The notes beneath the pieces were generated by a model. It was not told the origin of the DNA. It was given only the letters and a program-made list of their open reading frames with translations, and ran no database searches. Position numbers and translations under genes: made by a program. 64,000 nucleotides of DNA, taken from an uncultured Gammaproteobacteria bacterium (lineage in GTDB: Bacteria > Patescibacteriota > Microgenomatia > Levybacterales > UBA12049). The first letter of the stretch is position 1, and the number at the start of each line of letters is the position of its first letter. Shown one piece after another: positions 3,958 to 63,770 of this stretch. The DNA lies in contig CAYOZJ010000001.1 in assembly GCA_964408485.1 (NCBI GenBank), forward strand, positions 92,366 through 156,365. Direction: 5' to 3'.

Positions 3958-5118
3958 ATGAAGTCCCGTCTTAACCATCTCCAGCAAATCATGTCAGCGG
4001 CAGCTGTCGATGGATTTCTTATCTCTTCAAGTAGTAATATTTTTTATCTGTCCGGATTTAATAGATTTTTAGAAGATCACGACGGATTTCTCCTTGTTAC
4101 CAAAAAGGATCACTATCTTATTACTAGTCCCCTCTATACAGAAGCAGTAAAAAAATTTACGCCAGATTTACAGATTCTGGAAACATCTCCTGATGCATGG
4201 TATGCGCAAATGGTAAAACAAGTTGCAGAAAAGCAAAATATAAAAGTGATTGGTTTTGAAGAAAAAGATTTACGTGTCGCAGAATTTTTTGATTTAGAGG
4301 AGCAGAAAATAGAACTAAAAAGCGTATCTCTACGCAACTTACGACTTCAAAAAGATGCTAAGGAAATTAGTGCAATTTCCAAAGCATGCATACTCACCGA
4401 TAAGGCGTTTGAGCATATTCTTCCATTTATTAAAGAAGGCGTAACCGAACTCGATTTAGCAAATAAGATGCAAGAATTTTTAAAGAAAAATAATTCCGAC
4501 ATGGGCTTTCCTGCGATAGTTGCTTTTGGCAGACACTCTGCTGTCCCCCACCATATGACGAGTGAGGAAAAGCTGATAAAAAACAGTTTTGTTTTATTTG
4601 ATTTTGGCGTAAAAGTAGATAGTTACCTCTCCGATATGAGTCGTACTGTTTTTTACGGTGTACCAAGTACTGGACAAATCAAATTATATGAAACAGTTAA
4701 AAAGTCCCAACAAGCAGCAATAGACTATATTGAAAAAAAGCTTCAAACTGTCATTCTGGGGAACGAGGAACGAGTGACACCAGAATCTCGTTCAAAGATA
4801 GATTCTGGACAAGCCAGAATGACGATACCCGACATTTTTACTAAAGACGTGGATGCTCTTTCCCGAAAAGTAATTGAAGACGCAAAATTTACAGCCTACC
4901 CTCACGCGCTAGGACATGGTATAGGACTCGAAGTCCATGAAGCGCCAACCCTCTCTTTGTATTCACCAGAGAAATTATTGGATGGAATGGTATTCACTCT
5001 TGAACCAGGAATCTACGAACCCTCAATGGGTGGAGTCAGAATTGAAGACATGTATGTAATCAGGAATCAGAAACTTGAACAATTGACTCACGCATCCAAA
5101 GAACTTATTGTAATATAG
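3958..5118 (+). CDS. pepP: Xaa-Pro aminopeptidase / M24 family metallopeptidase
   Basis: 386 aa. M24 metal-ligand motifs (HGIGLEVHEAP; C-terminal E...E). N-terminal creatinase-like domain. Confidence 0.85.
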   Translation: MKSRLNHLQQIMSAAAVDGFLISSSSNIFYLSGFNRFLEDHDGFLLVTKKDHYLITSPLYTEAVKKFTPDLQILETSPDAWYAQMVKQVAEKQNIKVIGFEEKDLRVAEFFDLEEQKIELKSVSLRNLRLQKDAKEISAISKACILTDKAFEHILPFIKEGVTELDLANKMQEFLKKNNSDMGFPAIVAFGRHSAVPHHMTSEEKLIKNSFVLFDFGVKVDSYLSDMSRTVFYGVPSTGQIKLYETVKKSQQAAIDYIEKKLQTVILGNEERVTPESRSKIDSGQARMTIPDIFTKDVDALSRKVIEDAKFTAYPHALGHGIGLEVHEAPTLSLYSPEKLLDGMVFTLEPGIYEPSMGGVRIEDMYVIRNQKLEQLTHASKELIVI

Positions 5119-6232: not shown

Positions 6233-6284
6233 ATTTACCTCTTGACCCGATTTACTCCGATTAAATCGGAGTTAAAATCGGGGC

Positions 6285-6313
6285 TTGACTTTAGTTAAGT
6301 AAAGTACTATACT
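6285..6313 (+). promoter_or_regulatory. Sigma70-like promoter, TTGACT-17-TATACT
   Basis: Near-consensus -35/-10 with 17-nt spacer, 23 nt upstream of the ATG at 6337. Confidence 0.5.
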
Positions 6314-10753: not shown

Positions 10754-10798
10754 ATTCTGGATGCATCGCCTAAACGACTTACCAGAATGACCATGTCG

Positions 10799-11749: not shown

Positions 11750-11818
11750 CGTCATTGCGAGCAAAACGCGAAGCAATCTTATAAGATCGCCACGGGAATT
11801 CCTGTTCCCTCGCGATGA
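11750..11818. repeat. Intergenic copy of the ~70-bp palindromic element (TIR GTCATTGCGAG...CTCGCGATGAC)
   Basis: Same terminal inverted repeats as the in-frame copies inside nadE, nadD and dnaX. Confidence 0.7.
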
Positions 11819-11822
11819 CAAA

Positions 11823-11861
11823 AAGAGATCCTTCGACTCTGTTTCACTTCGCTCAGGATGA
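11823..11861. repeat. Short repeat of the family GAGATCCTTCG...GCTCAGGATGAC
   Basis: Related copies at 43975-44008, 48205-48232, 60555-60625 and 63003-63032, plus a hairpin variant at 58490-58545. Confidence 0.65.
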
Positions 11862-11870
11862 CAACAGTAT

Positions 11871-26796: not shown

Positions 26797-27942
26797 TTAG
26801 CTCCCTATTTTAAATTCAACTACGTCGCCGTCTTTCATTATGTAATCTTTTCCTTCGAGCCGTGCTTTTCCTTTTTCTCTAGACCCCTTCCAACCATTTT
26901 GATCAACAAAGTCCTCATACCCAACAACTTCTGCTTTAATAAATTTCTTTATAAAATCTGTATGAATCTCCCCTGCTGCTTCTGGCGCACTACTTCCTTT
27001 TCGTATTGTCCAAGCCCGCACTTCTTTTTCCCCACAAGTCAAAAAACTTATTAGACCTAACTGCGTATAGGCTTTTTGTATCAAACGCTCTAAGCCCGAC
27101 GCGCTAAGCCCTAAGCCGGCAAGGTATTCTTTTTGCTCATCATCCGAAAGACCTGCTAATTCAGATTCAATTTGCGCACAGATGACAACAATATTGTCTA
27201 CCCCAATGTCATTCCCGCGCAGGCGGGAATCTAGGGAACTGGATCCCTGATCGGAGTCAGGGATGACAGCAGAAAGTAATGAACGATACTCTCTCGTTAC
27301 TTTTTCAATTCCTTCAGGATTATATTGTGATTCACTCACGTTTAGGACAACTAACTCAGGCTTTGAGCTTAGCAGGAATAGCTCTCTTATTGCTTCCCTT
27401 TCTTCCTCGCTAAGATCCATTGCCCTCACCGGTACCCCTTGTTCTAATAGCTTTTGGACTTTCTCATGATTTGCGTTTTTTACTTTGCGATTTACATTCT
27501 GCAGAGTCTGCAGGTCAGCAAGCATAAGCTCAGTATTAATGACTTCATAGTCAGATTTTGGATCTACAGCACCTTCCTTAATAACATTCTCGTCTTCAAA
27601 CGCTCTGACAACATGCGCAACAACCGACACTTCTTTAATGTGCCCTAGGAATTTATTGCCAAGTCCTGCTCCCTCTGATGCACCTTTCACAAGTCCTGCA
27701 ATATCGACAAATTCAACAGTTGCAGGCTTGAGTGGTGGCAATTCACTCATCTTTTCTTCTTCTTTGGTAATCTCAGCAAGCTTGTTAAGTCGCGGATCTG
27801 GCACGGCAACAATCCCTACATTTGGCTCAATAGTTGCAAAAGGATAATTTGCAGCTAACGCTTGCTGCTTTTTAAGAAGCGCATTAAACAATGTAGATTT
27901 TCCTACATTCGGAAGACCGACAATCCCAACACTCAAGTTCAT
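26797..27942 (-). CDS. ychF: Ribosome-binding ATPase YchF (Obg-family GTPase)
   Basis: G1 motif GIVGLPNVGKSTLFNAL. TGS domain C-terminus (DFIKKFIKAEVVGYEDF...VVEFK). Carries an in-frame 60-bp repeat insert. Confidence 0.92.
   Translation of the reverse strand: MNLSVGIVGLPNVGKSTLFNALLKKQQALAANYPFATIEPNVGIVAVPDPRLNKLAEITKEEEKMSELPPLKPATVEFVDIAGLVKGASEGAGLGNKFLGHIKEVSVVAHVVRAFEDENVIKEGAVDPKSDYEVINTELMLADLQTLQNVNRKVKNANHEKVQKLLEQGVPVRAMDLSEEEREAIRELFLLSSKPELVVLNVSESQYNPEGIEKVTREYRSLLSAVIPDSDQGSSSLDSRLRGNDIGVDNIVVICAQIESELAGLSDDEQKEYLAGLGLSASGLERLIQKAYTQLGLISFLTCGEKEVRAWTIRKGSSAPEAAGEIHTDFIKKFIKAEVVGYEDFVDQNGWKGSREKGKARLEGKDYIMKDGDVVEFKIGS
27208..27267. repeat. In-frame 60-bp hairpin-rich insert within ychF (TIR GTCATTCCC...GGGATGAC)
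   Basis: Encodes DSDQGSSSLDSRLRGNDIGV on the minus strand. Contains hairpins CCCGCGCAGGCGGG and CCCTGATCGGAGTCAGGG. The termini are inverted repeats related to the other GATGAC-ended elements. Confidence 0.7.
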
Positions 27943-41128: not shown

Positions 41129-42658
41129 TTAGACAAATCCTGGAAAGAAATCTTTCTTTATGTGGAATTGAGAAATACCAATTTCCTTAAGCGTTTTTTC
41201 AAATCCCACAACCATACCATGTGGACCGGACAGATAAAAGAGTCTCTCTGTAAAATCTGGAATTTCTTTTCGTATCATATCAGGAGTAATTCTCCCAACC
41301 TGCCCTTTCCAATTTTTTGGCACACTGTCTATATCGGTAAGTGTGTAGATTGTTTTTACTCCAATTTTTTCGCCAATTTGGAAAACATTTTTATACATTA
41401 TTTCCGAATCCGCTTTATTGGAATACATAAGGATAATATCTCGCTTTTCGTCACTATCTATACAATATTTAATCATGCTTCTGAAAGGTGTTATTCCTAT
41501 ACCACCGGCTATAAAGACAAGCTTTTTCTCTAACGACTTTGGCAATGTAAACTCACCACCAAGACTTCCCACTGTAATACTGTCTTTGTCTGAGAGATGG
41601 TGCAAAGCGCGCTTAAAACTACTCCCATTTTCATAAAATTTTACTCCCAAATGAATTGCATTTTCTGTTGGAGAAGATGCAACAGTAAAATACCGCCTGT
41701 TTCCCCTGCTGTCAGTGCTCGGGTGCTTAAGTGTCCACTCCATGTATTGTCCTGGCATAAAGTGAAGCTTTTCTTGAGACGCAAAAACAAATTCCACTTC
41801 GTCTGCACCATATTGTGTTTTTTCTTTCAAATGCAACAGAAGCTTTTGTTTAGGACTTACAATATACGAAAAAATATTTGCAACAACTAATGTTAGCTCT
41901 GGTGAAGAATAAAAAGCGCCAACATGGATATGTGGATCAATAAGCAAAACAACTATTGTCCCGTATACTACTTGTAACAATTTTGTTGGTGGAGATGTAA
42001 GTGGTTCTGTTAACATAACAGTTGCAAAAAATACAATTGCAGAATCTAAGAAAAGTGAAGTAACACTGCTATACATAGGTGTCCCCTGCCAAATTGCAAA
42101 GAGAATAGTTATACCAATAACTCCGAGAAGAAATACAGAAATAAGAATAACTTTTTGAAGTTTTTTAAGGATAAGAAATCCGCCAATAGCGACAAACGGC
42201 AACATAACCGCAGTTCCAATCCACCAACTTGCATATCTCCCTAAAATAAATGCTGTTAAAACAACAGCAATTGCCGCGGGATTAAAAAGATGCTTTTTTT
42301 TGATTGCTAAAATATATTTTGACGCCATGGCAAAAACGCCAGCAAAAATAAAAAATGGAATATCCCTGACAGAAGTCATGGGAGTAATAATAAAAGTGAG
42401 AATAAGTGCGGTAATGTATACAGATTCTACATTCGTTGGCGCTTTAAAAAGGAATGCAAGTATCTTATTGCTTATCCAACAAACAATTGTCAAGAAAAGT
42501 GAAGAAAGTATGAGCGCACCTGGTGAGTAGGAGAGTAATCCACCATATGAAAGGATTGCTGCACACGCTACCCAACCAATTAAAACATACAGCACTACAC
42601 GGTACATGGTAATTCTGTCTAAAAAATTATCTAAAAGATTCAACATAAAAATCGTCAT
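41129..42658 (-). CDS. Fusion protein: RnfD/NqrB-like polytopic membrane domain plus C-terminal FNR-like FAD/NAD(P)-binding oxidoreductase domain
   Basis: N-terminus has KHLFNPAAIAVVL and MLTEPLTSPP, resembling the RnfD/NqrB FNPA and TDPVT motifs. C-terminus has FNR motifs RRYFTVASSP (RxYS), GGIGITP and SGPHGMV. Confidence 0.65.
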   Translation of the reverse strand: MTIFMLNLLDNFLDRITMYRVVLYVLIGWVACAAILSYGGLLSYSPGALILSSLFLTIVCWISNKILAFLFKAPTNVESVYITALILTFIITPMTSVRDIPFFIFAGVFAMASKYILAIKKKHLFNPAAIAVVLTAFILGRYASWWIGTAVMLPFVAIGGFLILKKLQKVILISVFLLGVIGITILFAIWQGTPMYSSVTSLFLDSAIVFFATVMLTEPLTSPPTKLLQVVYGTIVVLLIDPHIHVGAFYSSPELTLVVANIFSYIVSPKQKLLLHLKEKTQYGADEVEFVFASQEKLHFMPGQYMEWTLKHPSTDSRGNRRYFTVASSPTENAIHLGVKFYENGSSFKRALHHLSDKDSITVGSLGGEFTLPKSLEKKLVFIAGGIGITPFRSMIKYCIDSDEKRDIILMYSNKADSEIMYKNVFQIGEKIGVKTIYTLTDIDSVPKNWKGQVGRITPDMIRKEIPDFTERLFYLSGPHGMVVGFEKTLKEIGISQFHIKKDFFPGFV

Positions 42659-42725
42659 TCTGGCTTGTCCAGAATCTGATCATACAGAAAGATCCTGGAT
42701 GCGCTCCGCTTACCAGGATGACAGT

Positions 42726-52728: not shown

Positions 52729-53316
52729 TTACCCTATTCCTCCTCCTTTATTTTCTGTTGCGCGCTGTGCTTTTAGCAAATTATCATCTTGTTGTTTTTT
52801 CTCTTCTTTTTTCTGCATATCTTGGAATTTTTCCTCCTGCTTATCTTGCTCTTTTTCGTTATTTTCAACGACAGTCTTTCTGTCTCGTCCTTCTGCTTTT
52901 GCTAAAAAGTCCTGATAATACTCTTGGTGAAGACTCCTAAGTTCTTGCTCGATTTTCTGAATCTTTTCTATATCCTCTGGCGACTTACTCCCAGGATCTG
53001 CAACCAATTGTTGACCTGCTTTTGTAAGCATTTGCGGAGCTTGACCTTGTCCTTGTTGCTTTTGCTTACCACCAGCTGCATCCGGACTAAATAAGTCTCC
53101 TCCTTGTAGCGTATTTGCCCCGATTGAATCGGGGTTAAATGATCCATTTTGGGGCTGCTGCTTAGGAGGAGTAAAACTACCACTTATCCCGCCGCTTCCT
53201 TTTACTTGACCTGCTACAGATTTAGTAAAGTCAGCAATTGTCCCACCAATTGCCTGTTTTGTATTTGCTGTTAAATCCTCTAATGCTTCACCAAATCCAT
53301 TTGATCCATCTGACAT
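52729..53316 (-). CDS. Gln/Lys/Glu-rich low-complexity hypothetical protein. Contains a palindrome variant.
   Basis: Encodes NPDSIGAN from CCCCGATTCAATCGGGG (53118-53134). Confidence 0.35.
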   Translation of the reverse strand: MSDGSNGFGEALEDLTANTKQAIGGTIADFTKSVAGQVKGSGGISGSFTPPKQQPQNGSFNPDSIGANTLQGGDLFSPDAAGGKQKQQGQGQAPQMLTKAGQQLVADPGSKSPEDIEKIQKIEQELRSLHQEYYQDFLAKAEGRDRKTVVENNEKEQDKQEEKFQDMQKKEEKKQQDDNLLKAQRATENKGGGIG

Positions 53317-53374
53317 ATTGAGTCTAGTTTAACACAGAATGAGACCAATATCATTGTCGTTTGTAAAATCGATG

Positions 53375-53500
53375 AAAAATTTCTAATTTCTAATTACCTA
53401 ATTAACCTAAAGAAATCCCAAATTCCAATTTCTAACATTTTGTCATTGGTGCTTTTTTAGAAATTAGGGTAATTAGGTAAATTAGGTTAATTTTCTTTAA
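53375..53500. repeat. Intergenic ~120-bp element with TAATTAGGT-rich inverted-repeat arms
   Basis: Arms CTAATTACCTAATTAACCTAA / TTAGGGTAATTAGGTAAATTAGGTTAATT. Its core is homologous, in inverted orientation, to the element at 57437-57555. Confidence 0.65.
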
Positions 53501-54308
53501 TGTAAGGCACATGATGTTTAAAGTTATTTTTATCAACAAATCCTAAGACTTTTTTAACGATCTTTTCATCAATTCCTGATGCAACAATTTCTCCATTCGT
53601 CATCCCTTCATCAAACGCACGGTACAAAATTTTGTCTGCTTCTGCATAAGAAAATCCAAATTCATTTTCATCTGCTTGCGAATCCCAGAGCCCTGCAGAA
53701 GGAGCTTTTTCTACAATTTCTTTCGGCACACCTAAATATTTTGCCATTTCCCATACCTGCGTCTTATACAACCCTCGTATTGGCTCAATATCTGATGCCT
53801 CATCTCCAAAACGTGTAAAGTACCCTAAATAGTGCTCACTCTTATTTTCTGTCCCAACTACGAGTGCTTCCAGCTGCTTTGCCAAATCAAATAGATAAAT
53901 CATGCGGACACGTGCCATCATATTGCCTTTGCGCACAGCAAATATGTCATTGCGAGGAGCTTGCGACGCGGCAATCTCTTCATTTGTATTAGATTGCTTC
54001 GTTTCACTCGCAATGACGTCAACTGCACTTTTAATATCCCTCACAAAAATATGATCTTCTTTAAGACCAGCAGCCTCCACTACCATTTGTCCATGCTGGG
54101 AAGACTTTTGACTCATTTCCCCATAGGGCAAAAGTACGGCATAGACATTTTCTTTTCCTAATGCCTTTACTGCCAAGAAAAGTGATGTTGCACTATCCAC
54201 TCCACCTGACACAGCAAGAATAACACGGGAAAAACCCGCAGTTACTACTGTTTGACGAATCCAGGCAATAATCTCCTCTGATTTATTTTTGTAATCAAGA
54301 TCGTTCAT
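53487..54308 (-). CDS. nadE: NH3-dependent NAD+ synthetase, carrying an in-frame repeat insert
   Basis: PP-loop SGGVDSA and the conserved NadE core. 24-aa insert VIASETKQSNTNEEIAASQAPRND. Confidence 0.9.
   Translation of the reverse strand: MNDLDYKNKSEEIIAWIRQTVVTAGFSRVILAVSGGVDSATSLFLAVKALGKENVYAVLLPYGEMSQKSSQHGQMVVEAAGLKEDHIFVRDIKSAVDVIASETKQSNTNEEIAASQAPRNDIFAVRKGNMMARVRMIYLFDLAKQLEALVVGTENKSEHYLGYFTRFGDEASDIEPIRGLYKTQVWEMAKYLGVPKEIVEKAPSAGLWDSQADENEFGFSYAEADKILYRAFDEGMTNGEIVASGIDEKIVKKVLGFVDKNNFKHHVPYIKEN
53946..54017. repeat. 72-bp palindromic element in-frame within nadE
   Basis: TIR GTCATTGCGAG/CTCGCAATGAC. Internal sequence is identical to the copy in nadD and ~90% identical to the copy in dnaX. 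Confidence 0.85.
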
Positions 54309-54358
54309 TGTTAAATGATTAAATTCTTAAATTATTAGCAATATAGCAATTTAGCAAT

Positions 54359-54994
54359 TTAAGAATATAGCTTGTGCTCTATTATATACTTTTCTACACT
54401 TTCAGGCACAAGTCCTGTGATTGATTGACGATCTTTGATTAGATCCCGAATCCGTGTTGCACTATCTTCGAGTGGCACATAATTTGGATCTGTAATAACC
54501 GTTGCATTGCTGGGTGCATTTTCTACAGAAGAGCCTTTGCGAGCAACGACAAGAAAATGTACTTCTTTAAGAAGCTCTTCCCAGTGTGTCCACTTGTGAA
54601 ATACATTCATATTGTCTGACCCCACAACAAAAACAAACTCATGCTCTGGGTATTTCTGACGTAATCTTCGAACAACGGCTATTGTTTCTGTCGCTCCTCC
54701 TATTTCTACTGGTGTCATATCCACCTTCAAAGTGTCATTGCGAGGAGCTTGCGACGCGGCAATCTCTTCATTTGTATTAGATTGCTTCGCTTTGCTCGCA
54801 ATGACGGAAGAAATTGCCAACTCAGCCATTGCTTTTCTGTCTTTTGCAGATGCAACAATTGGCCGCCATTGATGCTGATTCTCTACGCTAAGCCATACCT
54901 CATCTGCCAAACCAATTTTAAGAACCTCTTTTGCAACAGCCAAGTGACCATTATGGATAGGGTCAAATCGTCCACCAAAAATCGCGACCTTCAT
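54359..54994 (-). CDS. nadD: Nicotinate-nucleotide adenylyltransferase, carrying an in-frame repeat insert
   Basis: MKVAIFGGRFDPIHNGH (the HxGH nucleotidyltransferase motif). Insert IASKAKQSNTNEEIAASQAPRND. Start trimmed to MKVAIF. Confidence 0.85.
   Translation of the reverse strand: MKVAIFGGRFDPIHNGHLAVAKEVLKIGLADEVWLSVENQHQWRPIVASAKDRKAMAELAISSVIASKAKQSNTNEEIAASQAPRNDTLKVDMTPVEIGGATETIAVVRRLRQKYPEHEFVFVVGSDNMNVFHKWTHWEELLKEVHFLVVARKGSSVENAPSNATVITDPNYVPLEDSATRIRDLIKDRQSITGLVPESVEKYIIEHKLYS
54734..54805. repeat. 72-bp palindromic element in-frame within nadD
   Basis: Same TIRs and core as 53946-54017. Confidence 0.85.
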
Positions 54995-55182
54995 GAGGAG
55001 TATTTTAGTATTATTGTTCGAGCTTGTCGAGAACTTATTAGGAGAAAAACCGATATCGAATGATACTTGGCCACATCCACCGTATGTTCGCACTTAGCTT
55101 TTCAATACTATTCGTATACGCCTCGTGCCAACATTATTGGTGGATTATGTACTATTTATACTTTAGCTATGGAACATAAAAA

Positions 55183-55207
55183 AACTCCCTTTCAGGAGTT
55201 CTTTAAT
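55183..55207 (-). terminator. Rho-independent terminator on the minus strand
   Basis: Minus-strand hairpin AACTCC-TGAAAG-GGAGTT followed by TTTTTTT, downstream of the 55221..56168 gene. Confidence 0.55.
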
Positions 55208-55220
55208 CCAATCTTAAATC

Positions 55221-56168
55221 TTATCTAATAAATCCAGGTGAAGTTGGTTTTCTTCTTGATCTTCCTACACCATTTCCACCATTATCTGCTACAGGTTCAT
55301 CTGTACCAACCATATGATCATACAGACCCAAAACTCTTACAGTCTGCTCTACAATATTTGCCTCTCGAGGCTGTGTATTTCTTCCATTAGATACCCTTGG
55401 ATCTCGAGGAGTTAAAGGTTGAGATGCATCTCGTTGTGCTGGCTGTCTATCCCCATTTCTTGCTGCTCTTACAACCTCTTCCACTGTCTGCCTACTAGGT
55501 GCACCTGTAAACTGTTCTACTGCCGATCCCTTCACTCTTTCATGGGTATTTACTATTTGATGGGCAAGGGCTGCTGTTGCTTTATTCGCAAGATATGTTT
55601 TTGCAAATCTCCATGGATGTACCTTACCCTTTGCATCAACTGCAGCATCTGCTGCTGCTCGCAAGCTGGATTCTGCTTCAATTTGCGCACGCTCTGCATC
55701 AGACAAGGCTGCTTGTTCTGCGTGCATTCGTTGTCCAGCAACGTCTGCAACAGCTCTTGGATGAATACCATGTCGGAAAATAGCTCCCTGTGTGGCGTCA
55801 CTGTGTGCACCAAGTGTTTTAGCCCATCCCTCCACTTGTTCTGCTCGCTCTGCAACTTCTCCTGCTACATCAAATAGCATTTCTTCTACCCCTTCTACTC
55901 CTCTATCACGAACTGTTCTTACTAATCCACCAACTAATGCTCCAAAGAAATTCTCTCTTTGTGGAACATATGACTCTGGTGCTTGTACAGGTTCTACTGC
56001 TCGTTGCTGTGGTTGTGGCTGTCTTGGTGCTCTTCCACCTCTTACTGAAGGCATATCACTTGCTTCAACACCAGGATATACTGGATCTTGTTGTCTTTCT
56101 GGTCTTGCAAGTGGAACTCGTGGTGCTCCCTTTGCTCTACTTCTATCTCTTTGTTCTGCTTTTCCCAT
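55221..56168 (-). CDS. Ala/Arg/Glu/Gln-rich hypothetical protein, 315 aa, compositionally atypical for this genome
   Basis: Long ORF driven by a perfect consensus promoter; the antisense plus-strand ORFs are Cys-rich junk. Confidence 0.5.
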   Translation of the reverse strand: MGKAEQRDRSRAKGAPRVPLARPERQQDPVYPGVEASDMPSVRGGRAPRQPQPQQRAVEPVQAPESYVPQRENFFGALVGGLVRTVRDRGVEGVEEMLFDVAGEVAERAEQVEGWAKTLGAHSDATQGAIFRHGIHPRAVADVAGQRMHAEQAALSDAERAQIEAESSLRAAADAAVDAKGKVHPWRFAKTYLANKATAALAHQIVNTHERVKGSAVEQFTGAPSRQTVEEVVRAARNGDRQPAQRDASQPLTPRDPRVSNGRNTQPREANIVEQTVRVLGLYDHMVGTDEPVADNGGNGVGRSRRKPTSPGFIR

Positions 56169-56180
56169 ATTATTGTTGTC

Positions 56181-56209
56181 ATTATAAATATACTATATTA
56201 AGTTGTCAA
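56181..56209 (-). promoter_or_regulatory. Perfect sigma70 promoter TTGACA-17-TATAAT on the minus strand, 12 nt upstream of the ATG at 56168
   Basis: -35 is the reverse complement of 56204-56209; -10 is the reverse complement of 56181-56186. Confidence 0.6.
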
Positions 56210-56350
56210 TAGGGTATTTTTATCTTCTTTATATTTGATATTGTAAGAGAATGATATATTTATGCAGTCTATACACTCTTTTATTAAAAATCACTATTTA
56301 GCCCTATAACCTTCAGTTATGAGATAATTTCTAAATTCCACTTTCCCCTC

Positions 56351-56379
56351 TTGACAAGACCGTACTACTGCTATTATTA
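56351..56379 (+). promoter_or_regulatory. Sigma70 promoter TTGACA-17-TTATTA, ~9 nt upstream of the ATG at 56389. Divergent partner of the minus-strand promoter.
   Basis: Consensus -35 with an AT-rich -10. Confidence 0.5.
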
Positions 56380-56388
56380 TGCGGGTAT

Positions 56389-56805
56389 ATGTCAATCGCA
56401 GTAAAACCAGGTACATCGGCTCGAATAAGAAGAGGGAGAGGAATCACTATTCCTACTGATATTAGTATTTCAGTTGAAGGTATTAAAACAACTGCGGTAG
56501 AACCATCTACTCAGACTGCTTCAGAACCTCGAAAAGGAAGAGCTGCAAAGCGCCTTGATTTAGCTTCTTTGGATCCGCAGATCTCAGTGGGACTTGTTGG
56601 TCATAGAGAAACATATCCAGCAGGTGTATTAAATCGTAGAAAAGCTACTGATAGTCCTGTGGCAAGGGAACCTCGCCAAAACGAAGAACCTCGTGTAGAC
56701 AAGGTAGTAACACCAAAAAGAAAACATGGAACACCAGGTACAGATTTGGGTGATGTAAAACTTCCTGATTGGGTTTTGAGAGAAGCTCATTTGCCACGTT
56801 CTTAA
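56389..56805 (+). CDS. Small basic disordered hypothetical protein, 138 aa
   Basis: Arg/Lys/Pro/Thr-rich ORF with its own promoter. Confidence 0.4.
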   Translation: MSIAVKPGTSARIRRGRGITIPTDISISVEGIKTTAVEPSTQTASEPRKGRAAKRLDLASLDPQISVGLVGHRETYPAGVLNRRKATDSPVAREPRQNEEPRVDKVVTPKRKHGTPGTDLGDVKLPDWVLREAHLPRS

Positions 56806-56831
56806 TTCATTTTCAGAATCATTGACTATAC

Positions 56832-57437
56832 TTATACTTCGCTTCTTCCTTCCATTGCACGTTGTAATGTAACTTCATCTGCGTACTCTAAATCTGCACC
56901 TACTGGCAAACCTCGACCTATACGAGTAATTCGCAGTTCGTGGTTCATAGTTCGTAGTTGTTTGGAGATATACATTGCCGTTGCTTCCCCTTCCATCGTT
57001 GGATTGGTTGCTAAGATAACTTCCTTGACCTCGTCATTATCCTTAAGCCTTTCAAAAAGCTTTCCTACATATATCTCATCTGGACCTAAATTATTTAATG
57101 GATCAATTCTGCCATGAAGCACGTGATAGATTCCCCTGTATTTGCCTGATTTTTCTAACGCCAAGACATCTAATGGCTGCTCAACAACGCAAATAGTACT
57201 GTGATCCCGTTGATTATCACTACAAATTGAGCAAGGGTCTGTCTCGTCAATGGACATACAGATAGAGCAAAGCTTGGTACCCGTTTTAAGACCCGTTAGC
57301 GCATTGGCAAAATTATCGAGCTCGGGTTGGGGTACATGAAGCAGATAAAACGTAAGACGCTGAGCTGATTTTGGCCCTACACCGGGTAATTTTTCAAAAG
57401 ACTCAATAAGAGACTGAACAGCTTTGGGTATACGCAT
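56832..57437 (-). CDS. recR: Recombination protein RecR
   Basis: HhH (LPGVGPKSAQRL), C4 zinc finger (C..C...C..C) and Toprim domain. Confidence 0.92.
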   Translation of the reverse strand: MRIPKAVQSLIESFEKLPGVGPKSAQRLTFYLLHVPQPELDNFANALTGLKTGTKLCSICMSIDETDPCSICSDNQRDHSTICVVEQPLDVLALEKSGKYRGIYHVLHGRIDPLNNLGPDEIYVGKLFERLKDNDEVKEVILATNPTMEGEATAMYISKQLRTMNHELRITRIGRGLPVGADLEYADEVTLQRAMEGRSEV

Positions 57438-57555
57438 AATGAATTGACCTAATTACTCTAATTGATCTAATTAACCTAATCAAGCACCAATTTAAAAATT
57501 TTGTCATTAGGATTTCTTTAGAATAATTAGAAATTAGGTGAATTAGGTTAATTGT
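57437..57555. repeat. Intergenic ~120-bp element with TAATTAGGT-rich inverted-repeat arms (second full copy)
   Basis: Arms CCTAATTACTCTAATTGATCTAATTAACCTAAT / ATTAGAAATTAGGTGAATTAGGTTAATTG. Core GCACCAAT...TTTTGTCATT..GGATTTCTTTAG is shared with the 53375-53500 copy. Confidence 0.65.
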
Positions 57556-58451
57556 ATTGCCTCTGCTAACAGTGACGCTACAGATAAAACAGTGAGTTTG
57601 GAAAACAACTTTTCCTTAGGTAAAACAACCGTGTCTGTTACAAAAACACTAGAGATAAAAGACTTTTCAAGAGCGCTTGGTGCATCTTCGGAAAAGATTG
57701 CATGCGTTGCCATAACAATTACTTCTGTTATACCATGGCTTTTAAGAAAATCACTGCCTAAGATAATTGTCTTACCTGATGAAATAAGGTCATCCACCAT
57801 AATTGCCCGTTTTTTACCTTTAATTGACCCTTCTTTAACACCTGTTATTTTTACTTCCCCTGTTTCTAGATCCCTATCCTTTTCCAAGGCAACATATGGC
57901 ATATCATCTAAAAGCTCTGAAAGTTTTTTGATTCTGGCTATGCCTCCCATGTCTGGAGAAACAAGCACCGTATCTTCGGTATTCCAATTATTTTTTCTTA
58001 TTTCCTCAGCAAAAAGAGGCAGAGCACTCACATGCTTAACTGGAATATGAAAAAGGCTAGGAATTCTAATAGAATGCATATCCACACTAACCAACTTGTC
58101 TATTCCTAAATTTTCTAATATGCGGATAACTACTTCCAACGATACTGCTTCCCCATCTCGAAAAATATGGTCTTGTCTCTGGTATCCAAAATACGGGACA
58201 ACTGCAGTAACAAACTCTGCACCGCTGCGCTTTAGCGCGTCTATAAGGAAGAATAATTCCATATAGTTAGTATCAACAGGAGGATATGCAGACTGAACCA
58301 CCACGACAGAATCACTAACAACTGCTTCATTTACCCTAACTCGCCTTTCCCCATCTGGGAAAATATGTTGGTCAACTGGTAACTCCTTTACACCTAAAAC
58401 CTTACCCATTTTCTGGGCTAAGTCCTGACTTGCTGTGCCACCAAAGAGTTT
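57543..58451 (-). CDS. prs: Ribose-phosphate pyrophosphokinase
   Basis: MKLFGGTASQDLAQKMGK N-terminus and a PRPP-binding loop (MVDDLISSGKT). Start trimmed to MKLF. Confidence 0.9.
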   Translation of the reverse strand, partial: KLFGGTASQDLAQKMGKVLGVKELPVDQHIFPDGERRVRVNEAVVSDSVVVVQSAYPPVDTNYMELFFLIDALKRSGAEFVTAVVPYFGYQRQDHIFRDGEAVSLEVVIRILENLGIDKLVSVDMHSIRIPSLFHIPVKHVSALPLFAEEIRKNNWNTEDTVLVSPDMGGIARIKKLSELLDDMPYVALEKDRDLETGEVKITGVKEGSIKGKKRAIMVDDLISSGKTIILGSDFLKSHGITEVIVMATHAIFSEDAPSALEKSFISSVFVTDTVVLPKEKLFSKLTVLSVASLLAEAIQLT

Positions 58452-58533
58452 CATATGTAAAACAAATTTCCTTCGACGCACTACGTTTGCTCAGGAAAAA
58501 TTTATCCCTGAGCGAAGTCGAAGGGTCTCCAAT

Positions 58534-58815
58534 TTACTGTCCTCCCATAAGGCCTCCTAAGCCTCCTCCCATTTGAGAAAGTTTTTTGGCTGCGATTTCT
58601 TGAGATTTTTTAATTGCTTCATTGATACAATCTTTAACATCGTTGTCAGACCTACCATTGGTATTAATACTTACAACTTTCTGGTCTCCTGTCATAACAA
58701 CAGTAACTCCTGATTTTTCAACGGTTATTTGCTCAGCTTGCAACGCTTTTTGAATTTGCATTGCCTGATCTCGCATTTTCTTTAAATCTCCTAATTGTTG
58801 AAATGGATTTAACAT
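58534..58815 (-). CDS. ybaB: Nucleoid-associated protein YbaB/EbfC
   Basis: 93 aa with the conserved YbaB core and a Gly-rich C-terminus. Sits in the canonical dnaX-ybaB-recR order. Confidence 0.85.
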   Translation of the reverse strand: MLNPFQQLGDLKKMRDQAMQIQKALQAEQITVEKSGVTVVMTGDQKVVSINTNGRSDNDVKDCINEAIKKSQEIAAKKLSQMGGGLGGLMGGQ

Positions 58816-58956
58816 ATATCTTACATCACCCCACCTTCTGTTTTAAATGTCATTCTAAATTTTATTCAAAATCTATTCAAAAAATATATTGCTACATTGC
58901 TAAATTGCTAAATGACTAAAGACAACAATTTAATAATTTAAGAATATAACAATTAT

Positions 58957-60453
58957 TTACTTCTTTAATTCTACCACCACACGAAGCTGTTTGCCAGTTA
59001 TCTCCCGTACTACTTTTTCTAGAATCTCAACTATTTGTGCTTCTCCAAGTTTTTCTTTATGAAATGCGTATGCTGTCTGGAGTACCAACTGAGTATCGGT
59101 AAGAGATTTTACCGTGCAACCTCTGAGTACTCCTGCAACAGAATGATTGTAAGGCTTTACCTTATAAATAAGATTCTCAAGCAAAACGCTCGTATCTTTA
59201 ATATCTTTTGGTAAATCTGTTTGAGTACTTGTTGACTCCTCCTTTTTGGGAGCAACCGGCTTTACACCGCTTAATACTTGCTTTACTTTAAGATTCTGCT
59301 CTTTTTTAAGCATGTCTTTCATGGTATTCCGGTCATTGTGAGGAGCTAAAGGCGACGCGGCAATCTCTTTATCCGTATTAGATTGCTTCGTTTCACTCGC
59401 AATGACAGCGCCTTGCTGACACCACACAACCACAGCTAATTCTAAAGGAAGGGATGGAATAGGGGCATATTTGGTACCTTGATACGCCTCCTCAAATAAG
59501 GGAATGAGTATTTGCATATCTGAAAGAGAAATTTTTATATCGCCCGTGCTATTTGTATTTCCTATTTCCCTTAGTAGTCTCTTATGCAAGTCTGACAAAA
59601 TTTGATAGAGGAAGAATTTTACATCTGTTCCTTCTTCAACAACTTGACTGACTACCTGAAGCGTAGCCTTTGCATCTTTTTTAAGAAAGTTTTCCATAAA
59701 ATCATGAAGATGAGGAAGAATATTCGTTGTTTTAAATGAAGTTTCAAAAACCTCTTTCGTAATCTTTTTTCCATTTGATAATGCAACAACTTCTTCTAAA
59801 ATTTTGGTTGTATCTCTGTATCCCCCATCTCCCATTTCTGCTATTAACCCAAGCGCTTCATCATCTATATCTATTTTTTCCTCTTTTACAATTCTTTTTA
59901 ATGCATGAGTTAGCTCTTCTTTGCTTGCTCTATTTAGAGAAATATGAAAACATCTGGAGATAATGGTTGCGGGGACTTTTTGCGGCTCTGTTGTTGCAAA
60001 AATAAAAACCACATGTGCTGGGGGCTCTTCAATTGTCTTAAGAAGTGCATTAAATGCTTCGTTGGTAAGCATATGCACTTCATCGATAATATAAACTTTT
60101 TTCCGACTAGCGCTTGGTGCTAGATTAACCCGTTCGCGAAGCTCTCTAATTTCATCGATGCCTCTATTGGATGCACCGTCAATTTCCAAAACATCAATGT
60201 TTGATCCATTGGTAATACTTACACATTGGTCACACTCATTACATGGTTCTATACCGTTACGCTTAGAACTTGTACAGTTGAGGACTTTGGCAATGATTCT
60301 GGCAGTTGATGTCTTCCCAAGTCCCTTGGGACCGGTAAATAGAAAGGCATGAGGGATTTCTTTTTGAGACAAAACTGCTGTTAGGGTCTCTCTGAGCTTT
60401 GGACTATCTAACTCTGCAATTGTTTGGGGACGGTATTTTCTGTAGTAAACCAT
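58957..60453 (-). CDS. dnaX: DNA polymerase III subunit gamma/tau, carrying an in-frame repeat insert
   Basis: AAA+ Walker A GPKGLGKTS, zinc module CNECDQC, SRC/sensor motifs. Insert VIASETKQSNTDKEIAASPLAPHNDRN between domain III and the C-terminus. Confidence 0.92.
   Translation of the reverse strand: MVYYRKYRPQTIAELDSPKLRETLTAVLSQKEIPHAFLFTGPKGLGKTSTARIIAKVLNCTSSKRNGIEPCNECDQCVSITNGSNIDVLEIDGASNRGIDEIRELRERVNLAPSASRKKVYIIDEVHMLTNEAFNALLKTIEEPPAHVVFIFATTEPQKVPATIISRCFHISLNRASKEELTHALKRIVKEEKIDIDDEALGLIAEMGDGGYRDTTKILEEVVALSNGKKITKEVFETSFKTTNILPHLHDFMENFLKKDAKATLQVVSQVVEEGTDVKFFLYQILSDLHKRLLREIGNTNSTGDIKISLSDMQILIPLFEEAYQGTKYAPIPSLPLELAVVVWCQQGAVIASETKQSNTDKEIAASPLAPHNDRNTMKDMLKKEQNLKVKQVLSGVKPVAPKKEESTSTQTDLPKDIKDTSVLLENLIYKVKPYNHSVAGVLRGCTVKSLTDTQLVLQTAYAFHKEKLGEAQIVEILEKVVREITGKQLRVVVELKK
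59332..59406. repeat. 75-bp palindromic element in-frame within dnaX
   Basis: TIR GTCATTGTGAG/CTCGCAATGAC. About 90% identical to the nadE and nadD copies. Confidence 0.85.
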
Positions 60454-60682
60454 AGTAATTTGTCATTCTGGGTTTTTCATTTTGTCATCCCGGACTTGAT
60501 CCGGGATCCACTCCTTTTTCTGGATTCCTGCTTTCGCAGGAATGACGCTTAATGAGATCCTTCACTCGACTCAGTATTTGCTTCACCGAAACGGCACACT
60601 TCGTTCAGGATGACAGAGACGAAGCATGATTTAGGATACTACAAAAGGAGGGGTATTAAAAGATTGCAAAGTGTATCGAAAA
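60454..60682. repeat. Cluster of at least four hairpin/MITE-like repeat units upstream of dnaX
   Basis: TTGTCATTCTGGG; TTGTCATCCCGGACTTGATCCGGGAT hairpin; ATTCCTGCTTTCGCAGGAATGAC hairpin; GAGATCCTTC...TTCAGGATGACAGAGACGAAG hairpin. Confidence 0.65.
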
Positions 60683-60994
60683 TTAGGTTCTCGGGGAATT
60701 AGGTCTTTGTCTTGAGCCAGAAGTTCGTCTTTTTGGTCTTGCTGCATCATATCCCCTAGCAATAGCCGCATCTACAGCAGCAACATCAAATGGTTGACCA
60801 GCATCTTGATATGCGGCCTCTGCTGCATATCGTGCTTCCCAAAGGCGCTTTGAACTTTCAACTGCTTCCTGACCCGCTCTCCGAGCAGCAGGCGTATTTC
60901 TTATCCCAACCTTGTTAAATCTTCTATGCCATCTTTCTGAAGCTTCCGCAGCTTCCGTGAGTCTTTCTAATGCGCCTTCAACCATAGAATGCAC
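60683..60994 (-). CDS. Ala/Arg-rich small hypothetical protein, 103 aa
   Basis: ORF in an operon-like array downstream of ybeY. Confidence 0.35.
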   Translation of the reverse strand: MHSMVEGALERLTEAAEASERWHRRFNKVGIRNTPAARRAGQEAVESSKRLWEARYAAEAAYQDAGQPFDVAAVDAAIARGYDAARPKRRTSGSRQRPNSPRT

Positions 60995-61039
60995 TATAAC
61001 AGATTTTTATGGGATGTCAAGAAAAAAAGCGTAACGGAG

Positions 61040-61255
61040 TTAATGAAGAGTAGCATTTCTCGCCCGAGCACGTGCCTGATGTACTCTACTATGTGCAACT
61101 TCGACGGGAACACCTTCTCTTTCCACGTTCGCAAATGCACTATGAAATGTTATCTTTGCTAAAGAATGACCAGGTCCTTTCGGTTTCCAGCCTACTGCTG
61201 CATTTTCTAATTTTCCCAATGCCTCTTCCTGTTCGGGACTTAGTTCAAAATTCAT
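61040..61255 (-). CDS. Small hypothetical protein, 71 aa
   Basis: ORF only. Confidence 0.3.
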   Translation of the reverse strand: MNFELSPEQEEALGKLENAAVGWKPKGPGHSLAKITFHSAFANVEREGVPVEVAHSRVHQARARARNATLH

Positions 61256-61301
61256 ACCGGATTATTATATAACTCTTACATGAGGTTTCAAGAGGAATCT
61301 T

Positions 61302-61595
61302 TTATACCACGTTTTTGAGTAACGATGTGTATCTTCTTTTCCACTCTGTATATTCTTTCTGCGCAGTGATTCCTGAATACATCCACTCCCTTGCTACACC
61401 CACCGGAATAACACCAATATCAACCTTTCTTTGGAGAGCTTGCTGTCTATTTCTCATTATAGCGTTGTGATGCTTTCTTAAGGGGTCAGAGGTGGGCATT
61501 TCACGCGTTTGCTCCCAATGTCTACCAAACTCAAATGCTTCGCGTTGAAGTTGAGAACCTATTTCGTAAGCCAATAATCTATAATTTGCTACCAT
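61302..61595 (-). CDS. Small hypothetical protein, 97 aa, start overlapping the ybeY stop
   Basis: 4-nt overlap with ybeY suggests translational coupling. Confidence 0.4.
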   Translation of the reverse strand: MVANYRLLAYEIGSQLQREAFEFGRHWEQTREMPTSDPLRKHHNAIMRNRQQALQRKVDIGVIPVGVAREWMYSGITAQKEYTEWKRRYTSLLKNVV

Positions 61596-61598
61596 AAG

Positions 61599-62816: not shown

Positions 62817-63770
62817 TCAAGTCTTTTCCAAGACTTTTACGATTTCGTCTAGACTCAATCGTGTTGGAACCATTTTGGGATTTTTTGGTGTACCATTTAA
62901 AAGCATTTTATTAGACACGTGTAAAAACCATGTTGCCTCAGGATCCATTTTTTCAAGCTGATCTCTTACTAAAGACAAATTAATATCAGGGACATTGTCA
63001 AACAAATGAGATCCTTCGCTTCGCTCAGGATGACGAGGGGGTGCGGGCACTGCTTTTATACGCACATACCCTTTTCGTGGATCGCGTCTTATAACCACTA
63101 CATATCCCATCTTTTGCGCAAGCTTAATAACGCTATCGTTAATTGTTTCTAGCGCAAGTCCTTTTCCCCATTTTGTTGTAAATTCTCTGCCTTTGTCTAT
63201 TTCTTTCTCTGCCCAAATGCGACTTTCAAATCTCTTAAGCATTGCGTCTAAAATCTCCATTCCCCAGCTTACAAAAAATTCGTCATTATCTGGATGGAGT
63301 CCTTTCATTCCCTCTAGAATTCCATATAGACTAAATTCATGAATATCAGATCCTGCATCTGGCCAAAAAATCTCCTGAAAATGATCAAGACTTACAATAT
63401 AACTAACAATGCGCTCCATGGCAGCAATTTTATCTTCTCTTTTGCCATCTGACGTTGTTGCGTGAAGCGCTGGATTTTCTTTAACAACATACTCCCAGCA
63501 TCTACTTGTACTGCAAATATTGGTGTCATAAATTTGATGATGATCAAGAGGTGTAAGACCAGTATCGACGTGGATTATTTTGGTATCGTCTGACTCAACA
63601 ATGATTTGTGTATCTGCTTCTTTTTCTTTTCGCAAAACTCGTGGACTTCTCTGTCCTGCTGGGACAAATTCTACTTTTGCATTATCCCATCCAGGTAAAA
63701 ATCTTTTAAGAATCCAGACCGATCCAATGGCATCCCAATCAGGAGATGCGTGTGCAATGATAACGTGCAT
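62817..63770 (-). CDS. DHH family phosphoesterase (NrnA-like nanoRNase/pAp phosphatase), with an in-frame short repeat insert
   Basis: Motif I HASPDWDAIGS and motif III IIHVDTGLTPLDHH. The repeat GAGATCCTTCGCTTCGCTCAGGATGAC (63003-63032) encodes PERSEGS inside the ORF. Confidence 0.75.
   Translation of the reverse strand: MHVIIAHASPDWDAIGSVWILKRFLPGWDNAKVEFVPAGQRSPRVLRKEKEADTQIIVESDDTKIIHVDTGLTPLDHHQIYDTNICSTSRCWEYVVKENPALHATTSDGKREDKIAAMERIVSYIVSLDHFQEIFWPDAGSDIHEFSLYGILEGMKGLHPDNDEFFVSWGMEILDAMLKRFESRIWAEKEIDKGREFTTKWGKGLALETINDSVIKLAQKMGYVVVIRRDPRKGYVRIKAVPAPPRHPERSEGSHLFDNVPDINLSLVRDQLEKMDPEATWFLHVSNKMLLNGTPKNPKMVPTRLSLDEIVKVLEKT

Follow-up and report, generated by a model that had tools for sequence, protein, structure and literature searches.

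Palindromic elements read in frame in housekeeping genes of a Patescibacteria genome are very probably CGTC-type REP dimers tolerated in protein loops

Inverted repeat dimers in and between the genes of the window

The stretch of DNA analysed here, referred to as the window, comprises 64,000 nucleotides of a Patescibacteria genome of the candidate phyla radiation (CPR; assembly GCA_964408485.1, contig CAYOZJ010000001.1, positions 92,366 to 156,365). It includes the adjacent genes nadE and nadD as well as dnaX, and each of these three genes carries a palindromic element with GTCATTGCGAG and CTCGCAATGAC at its ends, a further copy being intergenic (Table 1). A preliminary description of this DNA had listed four copies, all with perfect 11-bp terminal repeats around a nearly identical core, and had likened them to Rickettsia palindromic elements (RPEs). 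The positions of the three genic copies (53946-54017, 54734-54805 and 59332-59406) are exact, whereas the intergenic copy lies at 11751-11819 and had been placed one base too early, at 11750-11818. Only the nadE and nadD copies have terminal repeats without a mismatch; there is one mismatch in the dnaX copy, which reads GTCATTGTGAG, and one in the intergenic copy, which reads GTCATCGCGAG. Likewise, the core is nearly identical in the nadE and nadD copies, which match at 69 of 72 positions and lie 717 bp apart, but differs in the intergenic copy. The genic inserts are in frame as described: their lengths of 72, 72 and 75 bp are all multiples of three, and their peptides are read in the host open reading frames (ORFs). 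Allowing at most one mismatch, the terminal 11-mer GTCATTGCGAG occurs eight times in the 64-kb window, in four inverted pairs, versus 0.74 expected occurrences, and none of 100 shuffled sequences reached eight.

The three genic copies belong to a subfamily that we denote ATTGCGAG-type, or A-type, of which nhmmer detected no further copy in the window. The base preceding GTC gives TGTC/CGTC at the two ends of the nadE and nadD copies, GGTC/TGTC in dnaX and CGTC/TGTC in the intergenic copy; the tails of the ATTGCGAG-type copies are CTC or CTA. The element can be read without a stop in four of its six frames, and all three genic copies share one frame and one orientation relative to their minus-strand hosts. 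The chosen frame gives the most hydrophilic peptide, VIAS(E/K)(T/A)KQSNT..EIAAS..P(R/H)ND. Junction-spanning tryptic peptides predicted from the insert-bearing proteins include ...SAVDVIASETK and QSNTNEEIAASQAPR.

Hairpin units that start with GTC-AT number 15 in the window, versus 3.9 in shuffled sequences. There are eight dimers, every one with its tags outward, and about three single units; all units examined start with GTC followed by AT and close with AT. Where three genes had been reported as hit, at least six contain in-frame units, since ychF, the gene of an M24 peptidase and an ORF that weakly matches the DHH family have to be added. Thus six of the roughly 75-79 ORFs in 64 kb, about 8% of the genes, carry such a unit, at a coding density of ~89%. 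Four units are canonical in form, each with an 8-bp stem. Those at 60484-60507 (CTTGA loop) and 60524-60546 (GAAA loop) form a heterodimer upstream of dnaX, with CCA tails, and those at 27208-27230 (GCAG loop) and 27243-27267 (6-nt loop, slightly beyond the published range) form the heterodimer in ychF, ATTCCCGC-GCAG-GCGGGAAT followed by ATCCCTGA-CTCCGA-TCAGGGAT-CCA. Three of the four canonical units have a CCA tail. Folding, which the preliminary description had proposed as a check, showed that every dimer forms one long hairpin, with RNA folding energies of -21 to -30 kcal/mol and z-scores of -2.9 to -5.4. A cmscan search of positions 53000-60500 against Rfam 15 (E values up to 10) gave only chance-level matches, none on the elements.

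Table 1. Repeat elements of the window and their host genes
Feature	Position	Strand	Remarks
ATTGCGAG-type (A-type) inverted REP dimer, 72 bp	53946..54017	-	in frame in nadE; encodes VIASETKQSNTNEEIAASQAPRND, NadE residues 98-121
A-type (ATTGCGAG) dimer, 72 bp	54734..54805	-	in frame in nadD; encodes VIASKAKQSNTNEEIAASQAPRND
A-type (ATTGCGAG) dimer, 75 bp	59332..59406	-	in frame in dnaX, linker after domain III; encodes VIASETKQSNTDKEIAASPLAPHND
Intergenic dimer, 69 bp, GTCATTGCGAG/CTCGCAATGAC-type termini (one mismatch), different core	11751..11819		found by pattern search
Partial unit ending in CTCAGGATGAC	11820-11862		intergenic, directly after the dimer above
Heterodimer of two CGTC-type units, 60 bp	27208..27267	-	in frame in ychF; encodes VIPDSDQGSSSLDSRLRGND
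Dimer of GTCATTCTGG...CCAGAATGAC type, 74 bp	4750..4823	+	in frame in the M24 Xaa-Pro peptidase gene; encodes VILGNEERVTPESRSKIDSGQARMT
Single CGTC unit (CGTC-ATCCT-GAGCGAAGCGAA-GGAT-CTC)	63006..63034	-	in an ORF with a weak DHH-family match
Intergenic REP cluster	60484..60614		directly upstream of the dnaX start; heterodimer 60484-60546 and a further unit ending at 60614
Intergenic dimer, ATTCTGG/ATCCTGG type, 69 bp	42654..42722		between two minus-strand genes
Single unit (GTC-ATTCTGG...CCAGAAT)	10754..10791	-	in a 45-bp gap between convergent genes
nadE, NH3-dependent NAD+ synthetase, 273 aa	53487..54308	-	Pfam NAD_synthase 3-242/242
nadD-like nucleotidyltransferase, 211 aa from MKVAIFGG	54359..54994	-	Pfam CTP_transf_like 1-132/133
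dnaX, 498 aa	58957..60453	-	Pfam DNA_pol3_delta2 and DnaX ATPase lid
ychF, 381 aa	26797..27942	-	host gene
M24 Xaa-Pro peptidase gene, 386 aa	3958..5118	+	host gene

The single unit at 63006..63034 reads RHPERSEGS in another frame. The gap that holds the unit at 10754-10791 is bounded by the stop of a hisS-like gene at 10753 and that of the neighbouring gene at 10799. At 40659-40684, inside a 640-aa histidine-kinase-like ORF (39182-41104), we noticed a single GTC-ATTGCGT...ACGCAAT unit with a 7-bp stem, which could be fortuitous or could be a seventh intragenic unit. We also noticed that the lengths of all five intergenic dimers inspected are divisible by three: 11751-11819 (69 bp), 42654-42722 (69 bp) and 60484-60546 (63 bp) in the window, and 3110-3184 (75 bp) and 10830-10952 (123 bp) in the syntenic locus of a sister genome (L121, described below). 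This may be chance, or the lineage's pool of copies may pass through coding regions.

Relation to CGTC-tagged REPs and other small repeats

Repetitive extragenic palindromic (REP) sequences of the CGTC superfamily have been surveyed by Di Nocera, De Gregorio and Rocco (2013, BMC Genomics 14:522; PMC3733652), and all comparisons with that survey refer to the parts of it that were accessible. The superfamily is defined there by a CGTC tag with TGTC and CCTC variants, AT at stem positions 1-2 and a CCA tail, with a stem of 8-9 bp and a loop of 4-5 nt. Inverted dimers, able to form one large hairpin, predominate among its members, which have no dedicated transposase; several families can share one genome, and intragenic dimers encode 20-30 amino acids in several phyla, often in replication and repair genes. 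The RPE-4 and RPE-6 of Rickettsia conorii are equated with CGTC-1 and CGTC-4 REPs (PMC3733652). The tag, AT-initiated stem and dimer layout of the elements in the window match this definition, which places them in the CGTC-tagged REP superfamily. They are inverted dimers, tags outward, of CGTC-tagged REP-type units, non-autonomous hairpin repeats of a known kind in a new host lineage, and we regard it as very probable that they are in-frame CGTC-type REP dimers tolerated in loops.

The same termini are widespread. We scanned one genome per species with the pattern GTCATTGCGAG-N35-65-CTCGCAATGAC, which matched at least 120 loci; the results that follow, counts included, hold among the matches listed, which comprise 124 genomic copies. 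The matches include Bradyrhizobium, sphingomonads, Pedobacter and Mucilaginibacter (Bacteroidota), Chloroflexota, Planctomycetota, Microcoleus (cyanobacteria), delta- and gammaproteobacteria, Rickettsiales, Coxiellaceae, Berkelbacteria and other Patescibacteria, so that the termini together with an inner GCAATC stem are pan-bacterial. The inner GCAATC, which the search pattern did not demand, is present in 116 of the 124 copies, and the matching GATTGC in 107. The base before GTC is C at 182 of 248 ends (73%) and T at 54 (22%), giving a CGTC/TGTC tag, and the inner GCAAT is followed by CCA in 69 of 116 copies (59%), with CTC and CTT next. Copies with a length divisible by three are in slight excess only (50 of 124). 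In a scan of viral contigs (IMG/VR) the same terminal pattern was found at at least 120 loci (L149-L268). Some of these putatively viral contigs (L184, L195 and L207) hold three copies each; phages or prophage-flanking DNA could carry the family between phyla.

The comparison with CGTC REPs brings out likenesses and differences. The (C/T)GTC tag, the stem starting with AT, the CCA-type tail and the inverted dimers are shared, and the units in ychF and upstream of dnaX fit the geometry of an 8-bp stem. In contrast, the basal stem of the ATTGCGAG-type units is only 5 bp and encloses a long, purine-rich interior, Patescibacteria are outside the five phyla listed in the accessible parts of the survey, and the intragenic share, at six of roughly 75-79 ORFs in 64 kb, is high. 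Moreover, occupancy of one site by different REPs, for which those parts note only Xanthomonas recB (PMC3733652), is the rule here at the nadD, dnaX, ychF and NadE-loop sites.

The likening to RPEs holds at the level of the superfamily, since RPE-4 and RPE-6 are equated with CGTC REPs, whose tag, AT-initiated stem and dimer layout the elements in the window show. RPEs too are palindromic repeats in frame in unrelated housekeeping genes, and their sequences end in CGTC. Peptides of the VIPAKAGI and DSRFRGND types recur in CPR orthologues (such as the NadE P0033) and in the YchF of the window, whose insert peptide DSRLRGND is, like DSRFRGND, a CGTC-1 peptide listed for R. conorii (PMC3733652). 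However, the CGTC-1 units of R. conorii use all three frames (VIPAKAGI, SFPRKRES, CHSRESGNP), whereas dimers in the CPR sets nearly always begin with GTC read as Val, and the classic RPE-1, at ~150 bp, is set apart here by its size.

REPINs, which are mobilised by REP-associated tyrosine transposases (RAYTs), likewise consist of two inverted hairpin units that form a long hairpin, show no target-site duplication and occur as dispersed copies, and they provide a model for recognition of a tag plus hairpin on single-stranded DNA; their tag, however, is GTAG and not CGTC/TGTC, and no RAYT is present in the window or the CPR loci, the one match in 2.3 Mb being unlinked. The QMITE repeats of Coxiella and ERIC sequences are small palindromic repeats that sometimes give in-frame fusions, but they tend to be longer, and direct repeats enter their definition alongside terminal inverted repeats; in-frame insertion in the middle of a core enzyme is exceptional among them, and QMITE2 lies mostly in 3' untranslated regions.

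The claim of novelty in the preliminary description stands in part. The kind of element is known, in-frame intragenic REP dimers having been described in several phyla and the termini being pan-bacterial, whereas the host lineage seems undescribed: the literature searched held nothing on REPs in Patescibacteria, nor did it describe the density and turnover of REPs at the same loop regions in these tiny genomes. A literature search by strings of the element sequence and its peptides gave only PCR primers and unrelated matches. In protein databases, a 49-aa tandem of two insert peptides gave no candidates, and phmmer, queried with 30 aa spanning the insert and its surroundings, matched one of 1.84 billion representatives, P0242. 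This 439-aa entry consists of ~15 tandem copies of VIASEARQS...DCHGLRPRND and is a translated ATTGCGAG-type REP array, from which it follows that large arrays of this type exist in some genome and are annotated as proteins.

Turnover and conservation at shared protein loops

Apart from the inserts, the host proteins keep their expected architecture, as had been proposed: NadE, NadD and DnaX give near full-length Pfam matches. The inserts were also expected to map to surface loops, and they do lie at loops or linkers, where solved homologues lack them and models show low-confidence protrusions. PDB homologues of NadE, NadD, YchF and the M24 peptidase can be aligned to either side of the insert, which they lack, the NadD alignments breaking at the insert; the YchF of E. 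coli is without it as well. In an AlphaFold (AF2) model of NadE with a mean predicted local distance difference test score (pLDDT) of 88, residues 98-121 prolong the flanking helix and the tip, residues 109-116, falls below a pLDDT of 50. The AF2 model of YchF (mean pLDDT 83) shows the insert as a coil between the helix 209-224 and the strand 251-254, with pLDDT below 50 at residues 232-244. The dnaX insert is in the variable linker after domain III, and an uninserted relative has an unrelated linker of similar length. Thus, the inserts are predicted to be disordered loops or linkers that add ~10-25 residues to each protein.

A GalE-like epimerase and a class-V aminotransferase, two identities that Pfam confirms, also carry the core of the ATTGCGAG subfamily in frame, as do a 1144-aa Mfd-like ORF, identified by eye only, and a PHP-like ORF, identified by eye and with no Pfam match. 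The copy in the Mfd-like ORF (L137, UOEB01000286.1, 7344-7415; 72 bp) has its left 27 bases identical to those of the nadE copy of the window; if this contig is not from the CPR, a REP arm is nearly identical across phyla. Among the ATTGCGAG-type peptides in the NadE and YchF orthologue sets, inspected by eye, all but one start with VIA(S/N)..KQS; the exception, P0109, has the element in another frame. We considered a strict orientation bias and rejected it: it holds in the CPR sets, but the distinct ORFs among the metagenome matches of the subfamily split into four with the same and two with the opposite orientation.

The position of the dnaX hairpin just after domain III led us to consider programmed frameshifting, with the hairpin as stimulator, as for tau/gamma of E. 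coli. The 24 nt upstream of the insert, GTTGTGTGGTGTCAGCAAGGCGCT, contain, by eye, no slippery X XXY YYZ heptamer, and the dnaX of the sister genome has a different element, so this idea was rejected.

A syntenic contig of a sister genome (GCA_035457005.1; L121, L269) shows how these sites have changed. Its NadE is 73% identical to that of the window (74% over aligned residues outside the insert), and its nadE carries the 72-bp element too, in the loop that holds it in the window. The site in its nadD is likewise occupied, by a 54-bp dimer from another family and, after it, one right-hand ATTGCGAG-type unit, and the site in its dnaX by a degenerate peptide, VVPGDQ...SQDD, possibly of a third family as judged from the peptide alone. 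In ychF a 63-bp ATTGCGAG-type dimer follows LLSG, and in the window the 60-bp CGTC-1-type heterodimer is at the matching position, after LLSA. The preliminary description had taken the adjacency of nadE and nadD, both hit, as a sign of local transposition or recombination, and the small number of differences between the two copies (3 of 72), so close together, would fit a recent transposition or gene conversion. However, since both sites are occupied in the sister genome, by the same family in nadE and by a mosaic in nadD, both insertions are old, and the argument for a recent local event falls; moreover, the sister nadE copy matches the two window copies at 67-68 of 72 positions, almost as well as they match each other. 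We therefore consider a recent local event improbable. At another syntenic locus (L124, GCA_964474445.1) no REP dimer was detected in 20.8 kb, nadE, nadD and dnaX being without a recognisable one, which shows that REP content differs sharply between related CPR lineages.

Orthologue sets revealed extensive reuse of the same loops. The NadE loop normally has 12-14 residues and is longer in 55 of 120 orthologues; REP peptides can be recognised in at least 36, and they fall into six classes (VIAS..PRND, VILS..QND, VIPAKAGIQ, VIPDL.., VILG..ARMT and ..AVQDD). These peptides start at offsets of 0, 4 or 5 residues from a fixed NadE landmark, each offset being used by several families, and the presence of an insert is scattered over a neighbour-joining tree with ~36 parsimony changes. 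At three further NadE loci the DNA confirmed a 90-bp dimer, a 60-bp CGTC-1 heterodimer and the 20.8-kb region free of dimers. For YchF, 33 of 120 orthologues have an enlarged loop at the place of the window's insert. Weaker than this is a second hot spot near residue ~62, where 10 of 120 have REP-like peptides (EILKQVQDDK, ..SDSGQARMT and EIASPAKGGLAMT), and near residue ~119 four orthologues, that of the sister genome among them, contain DPSA(S/G)SGQAP or a closely similar peptide. Together these data show that the same NadE and YchF loop regions are reused by at least five to six REP families in CPR orthologues.

The DNA of the element is better conserved than that of its host gene. The nadE elements of the window and the sister genome agree at 67 of 72 positions (93%) and at 22 of 24 third codon positions (92%), and their peptides are 83% conserved, versus 72% identity and 54% of third positions in the rest of nadE. 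In L270 (~6280-6310) and L271, NadE loops of normal length consist of a perfect single unit, ATCCTGAA-(G/A)CAAG-TTCAGGAT-GACG, with an 8-bp stem, a 5-nt loop and a GACG tag, read as ILKQVQDD; the two differ at one loop base, whereas by eye their flanks differ widely. The ILKQVEDD of the L124 NadE loop may be a decayed version of this unit, and a REP unit may also be the origin of the consensus CPR NadE loop, K-I-L-K-Q-V-x-D-D. Intragenic units thus stay palindromic far longer than neutral decay allows, which points either to selection on the hairpin or to repeated re-copying from a genomic pool.

Spread, rival explanations and neighbouring regions

No sign of cut-and-paste transposition was detected. 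Among the 124 genomic copies listed, direct duplications of 2-5 bp at the flanks were at or below chance (4 versus 7.75 expected for 2 bp, 2 versus 1.9 for 3 bp and 0 versus 0.5 for 4 bp), and the four window copies have none. The transposase test covered Y1/RAYT-type enzymes: a RAYT/TIRYT hidden Markov model, built from a published alignment, matched one ORF in 269 loci (2.3 Mb), ~3.8 kb from the element of its locus, and none in the window or the CPR loci. With duplications at or below chance and no linked Y1/RAYT gene, the elements are not cut-and-paste MITEs (miniature transposable elements with inverted repeats).

We envisage instead that the elements insert into permissive surface loops and linkers in housekeeping proteins, or are copied anew at these places, where they would be transcribed and translated within the host ORF. 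Surviving copies would be those that are stop-free and encode a hydrophilic, disordered peptide tolerated by the fold, with translation and folding as the filter. The conserved (C/T)GTC-AT foot may be recognised in a single-strand hairpin or template-switch process by which the elements spread; sites that already hold a REP may attract replacement units, so that families would switch in situ, and the insert peptide would be neutral baggage and not functional. A further reading, which we offer tentatively and hold to be possible rather than probable, is that the intragenic REP sites of CPR bacteria are long-lived landing pads at which units are re-copied, swapped, and expanded or contracted while their DNA stays near-perfect. 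Normal-length loops such as the NadE ILKQVQDD would then be domesticated single REP units. If so, there would be active hairpin- or micro-homology-directed copying with no need for a transposase, which would explain the propagation of CGTC REPs and would provide a steady source of new loop sequence in essential proteins. To our knowledge, no mobilising enzyme has ever been found for CGTC REPs.

Several points weigh against the assignment to in-frame CGTC-type REP dimers carried as neutral baggage. The ATTGCGAG-type single units, with a 5-bp basal stem (ATTGC/GCAAT) and a purine-rich interior of 12-17 nt, depart from the published dimensions, a stem of 8-9 bp and a loop of 4-5 nt, and as DNA they fold at -2.2 to -3.4 kcal/mol, no better than shuffled sequences; the dimer folds as a single hairpin with a z-score of -4.7. 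In its behaviour the ATTGCGAG subfamily thus comes closer to a single long hairpin bounded by terminal inverted repeats. The published intragenic list does not include its peptide in the two accessible parts out of three (PMC3733652). The manner of spread is an inference, the translation of the inserts is predicted from reading frames, and turnover is deduced from a neighbour-joining tree of a short protein and from peptide classes set by regular expressions. Finally, the high DNA conservation could mean function, contrary to neutral baggage.

Function is the most serious of the rivals to the assignment, or else a complement to it, and we nevertheless judge it unlikely. Here the hairpin itself, as DNA or RNA, would be useful, as a site bound by a nucleoid or topology protein, as a stabiliser of mRNA or as a pause in translation, and scarce intergenic space would force the elements into permissive protein loops. 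The excess of conservation over the host gene, at third codon positions too, speaks for this reading; perfect palindromic units persist in divergent NadE lineages, termini and inner stem are conserved across phyla, the coding density is high, and roles of REPs in supercoiling, termination and mRNA stability have been proposed (PMC3733652). Yet the 20.8 kb of L124 lack any detected dimer, its nadE, nadD and dnaX included, presence and absence are scattered over the NadE tree, families are interchangeable at one site, and in the published survey the uneven distribution of REPs is taken to speak against a general function (PMC3733652). Re-copying from a genomic pool would moreover yield equal conservation without function.

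The remaining explanations fare worse. A classical MITE would have arisen from an insertion sequence by deletion and be mobilised in trans by a DDE transposase, through recognition of the 11-bp terminal inverted repeats. It would account for those near-perfect repeats, the small size and the multiple dispersed copies, but is highly unlikely given the lack of target-site duplications in the 124 listed and the four window copies. No full-length parent element was seen in the fetched loci by a pattern search that cannot span kilobase gaps, the termini are the tag and stem of hairpin units that also occur singly, and the published survey found associations with transposase genes at chance only (PMC3733652). 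Still less credible is that the 24-aa segment is an ancestral or functional module of the enzymes. The conservation of the NadE peptide between two genomes and the frequency of some insert in CPR NadE and YchF speak for it; however, the same peptide occurs in the unrelated NadE, NadD, DnaX, GalE-like epimerase, class-V aminotransferase and (by eye) Mfd-like ORF, its DNA is palindromic and also occurs between genes, orthologues have unrelated peptides or none at the same loop, and solved homologues lack the insert, which is predicted to be disordered. That assembly or sequencing created chimeric repeats has a negligible probability: the source is probably a metagenome-assembled genome, which is nothing specific, whereas the same elements are at the same sites in independent NCBI, Logan, ENA and JGI assemblies, reading frames are preserved, and the elements are also found in finished genomes of cultured bacteria.

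As in-frame CGTC-type REP dimers, the elements extend the host range of CGTC REPs and short RPEs to the candidate phyla radiation. In such compact genomes a large share of the copies is inside conserved genes, and the picture of REPs as extragenic fails. Lineage-specific 'insertions' in CPR protein families would be repeat DNA and not functional domains, and some 'hypothetical proteins', such as P0242, translated repeat arrays. The reuse of loops, the switching of families and the conservation of DNA above the level of the host gene make this a system for studying REP spread without a transposase, and the sharp contrast in REP content between CPR lineages makes phyletic profiling for a mobilising enzyme feasible. 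According to Claverie and Ogata, palindromic repeats reportedly seed new protein segments, an idea that the CPR REP system could test.

Two regions next to the element-bearing genes differ between the syntenic loci. Between dnaX and ybeY there is a stretch of ~1.15 kb (60454-61598) with the REP cluster 60484-60614 at its start, a possible partial unit from ~60461 and three small Ala/Arg/Glu-rich ORFs without a Pfam match (60683-60994, 61040-61255 and 61302-61595). The stretch is absent from L121 and L124, where ybeY is ~60-90 bp from dnaX; possibly it is a small island that was inserted and has REPs at its borders. From nadD to recR (55221-56805), there are ORFs in four frames simultaneously, and the top strand is pyrimidine-rich. 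Two of the ORFs there, the longest (55221-56168; minus strand, 315 aa, rich in R, A, Q, E and P) and 56389-56805, have no Pfam match. With two ORFs (122 and 157 aa) at this place in the sister locus and five in L124, the nadD-recR region is a hypervariable intergenic island.

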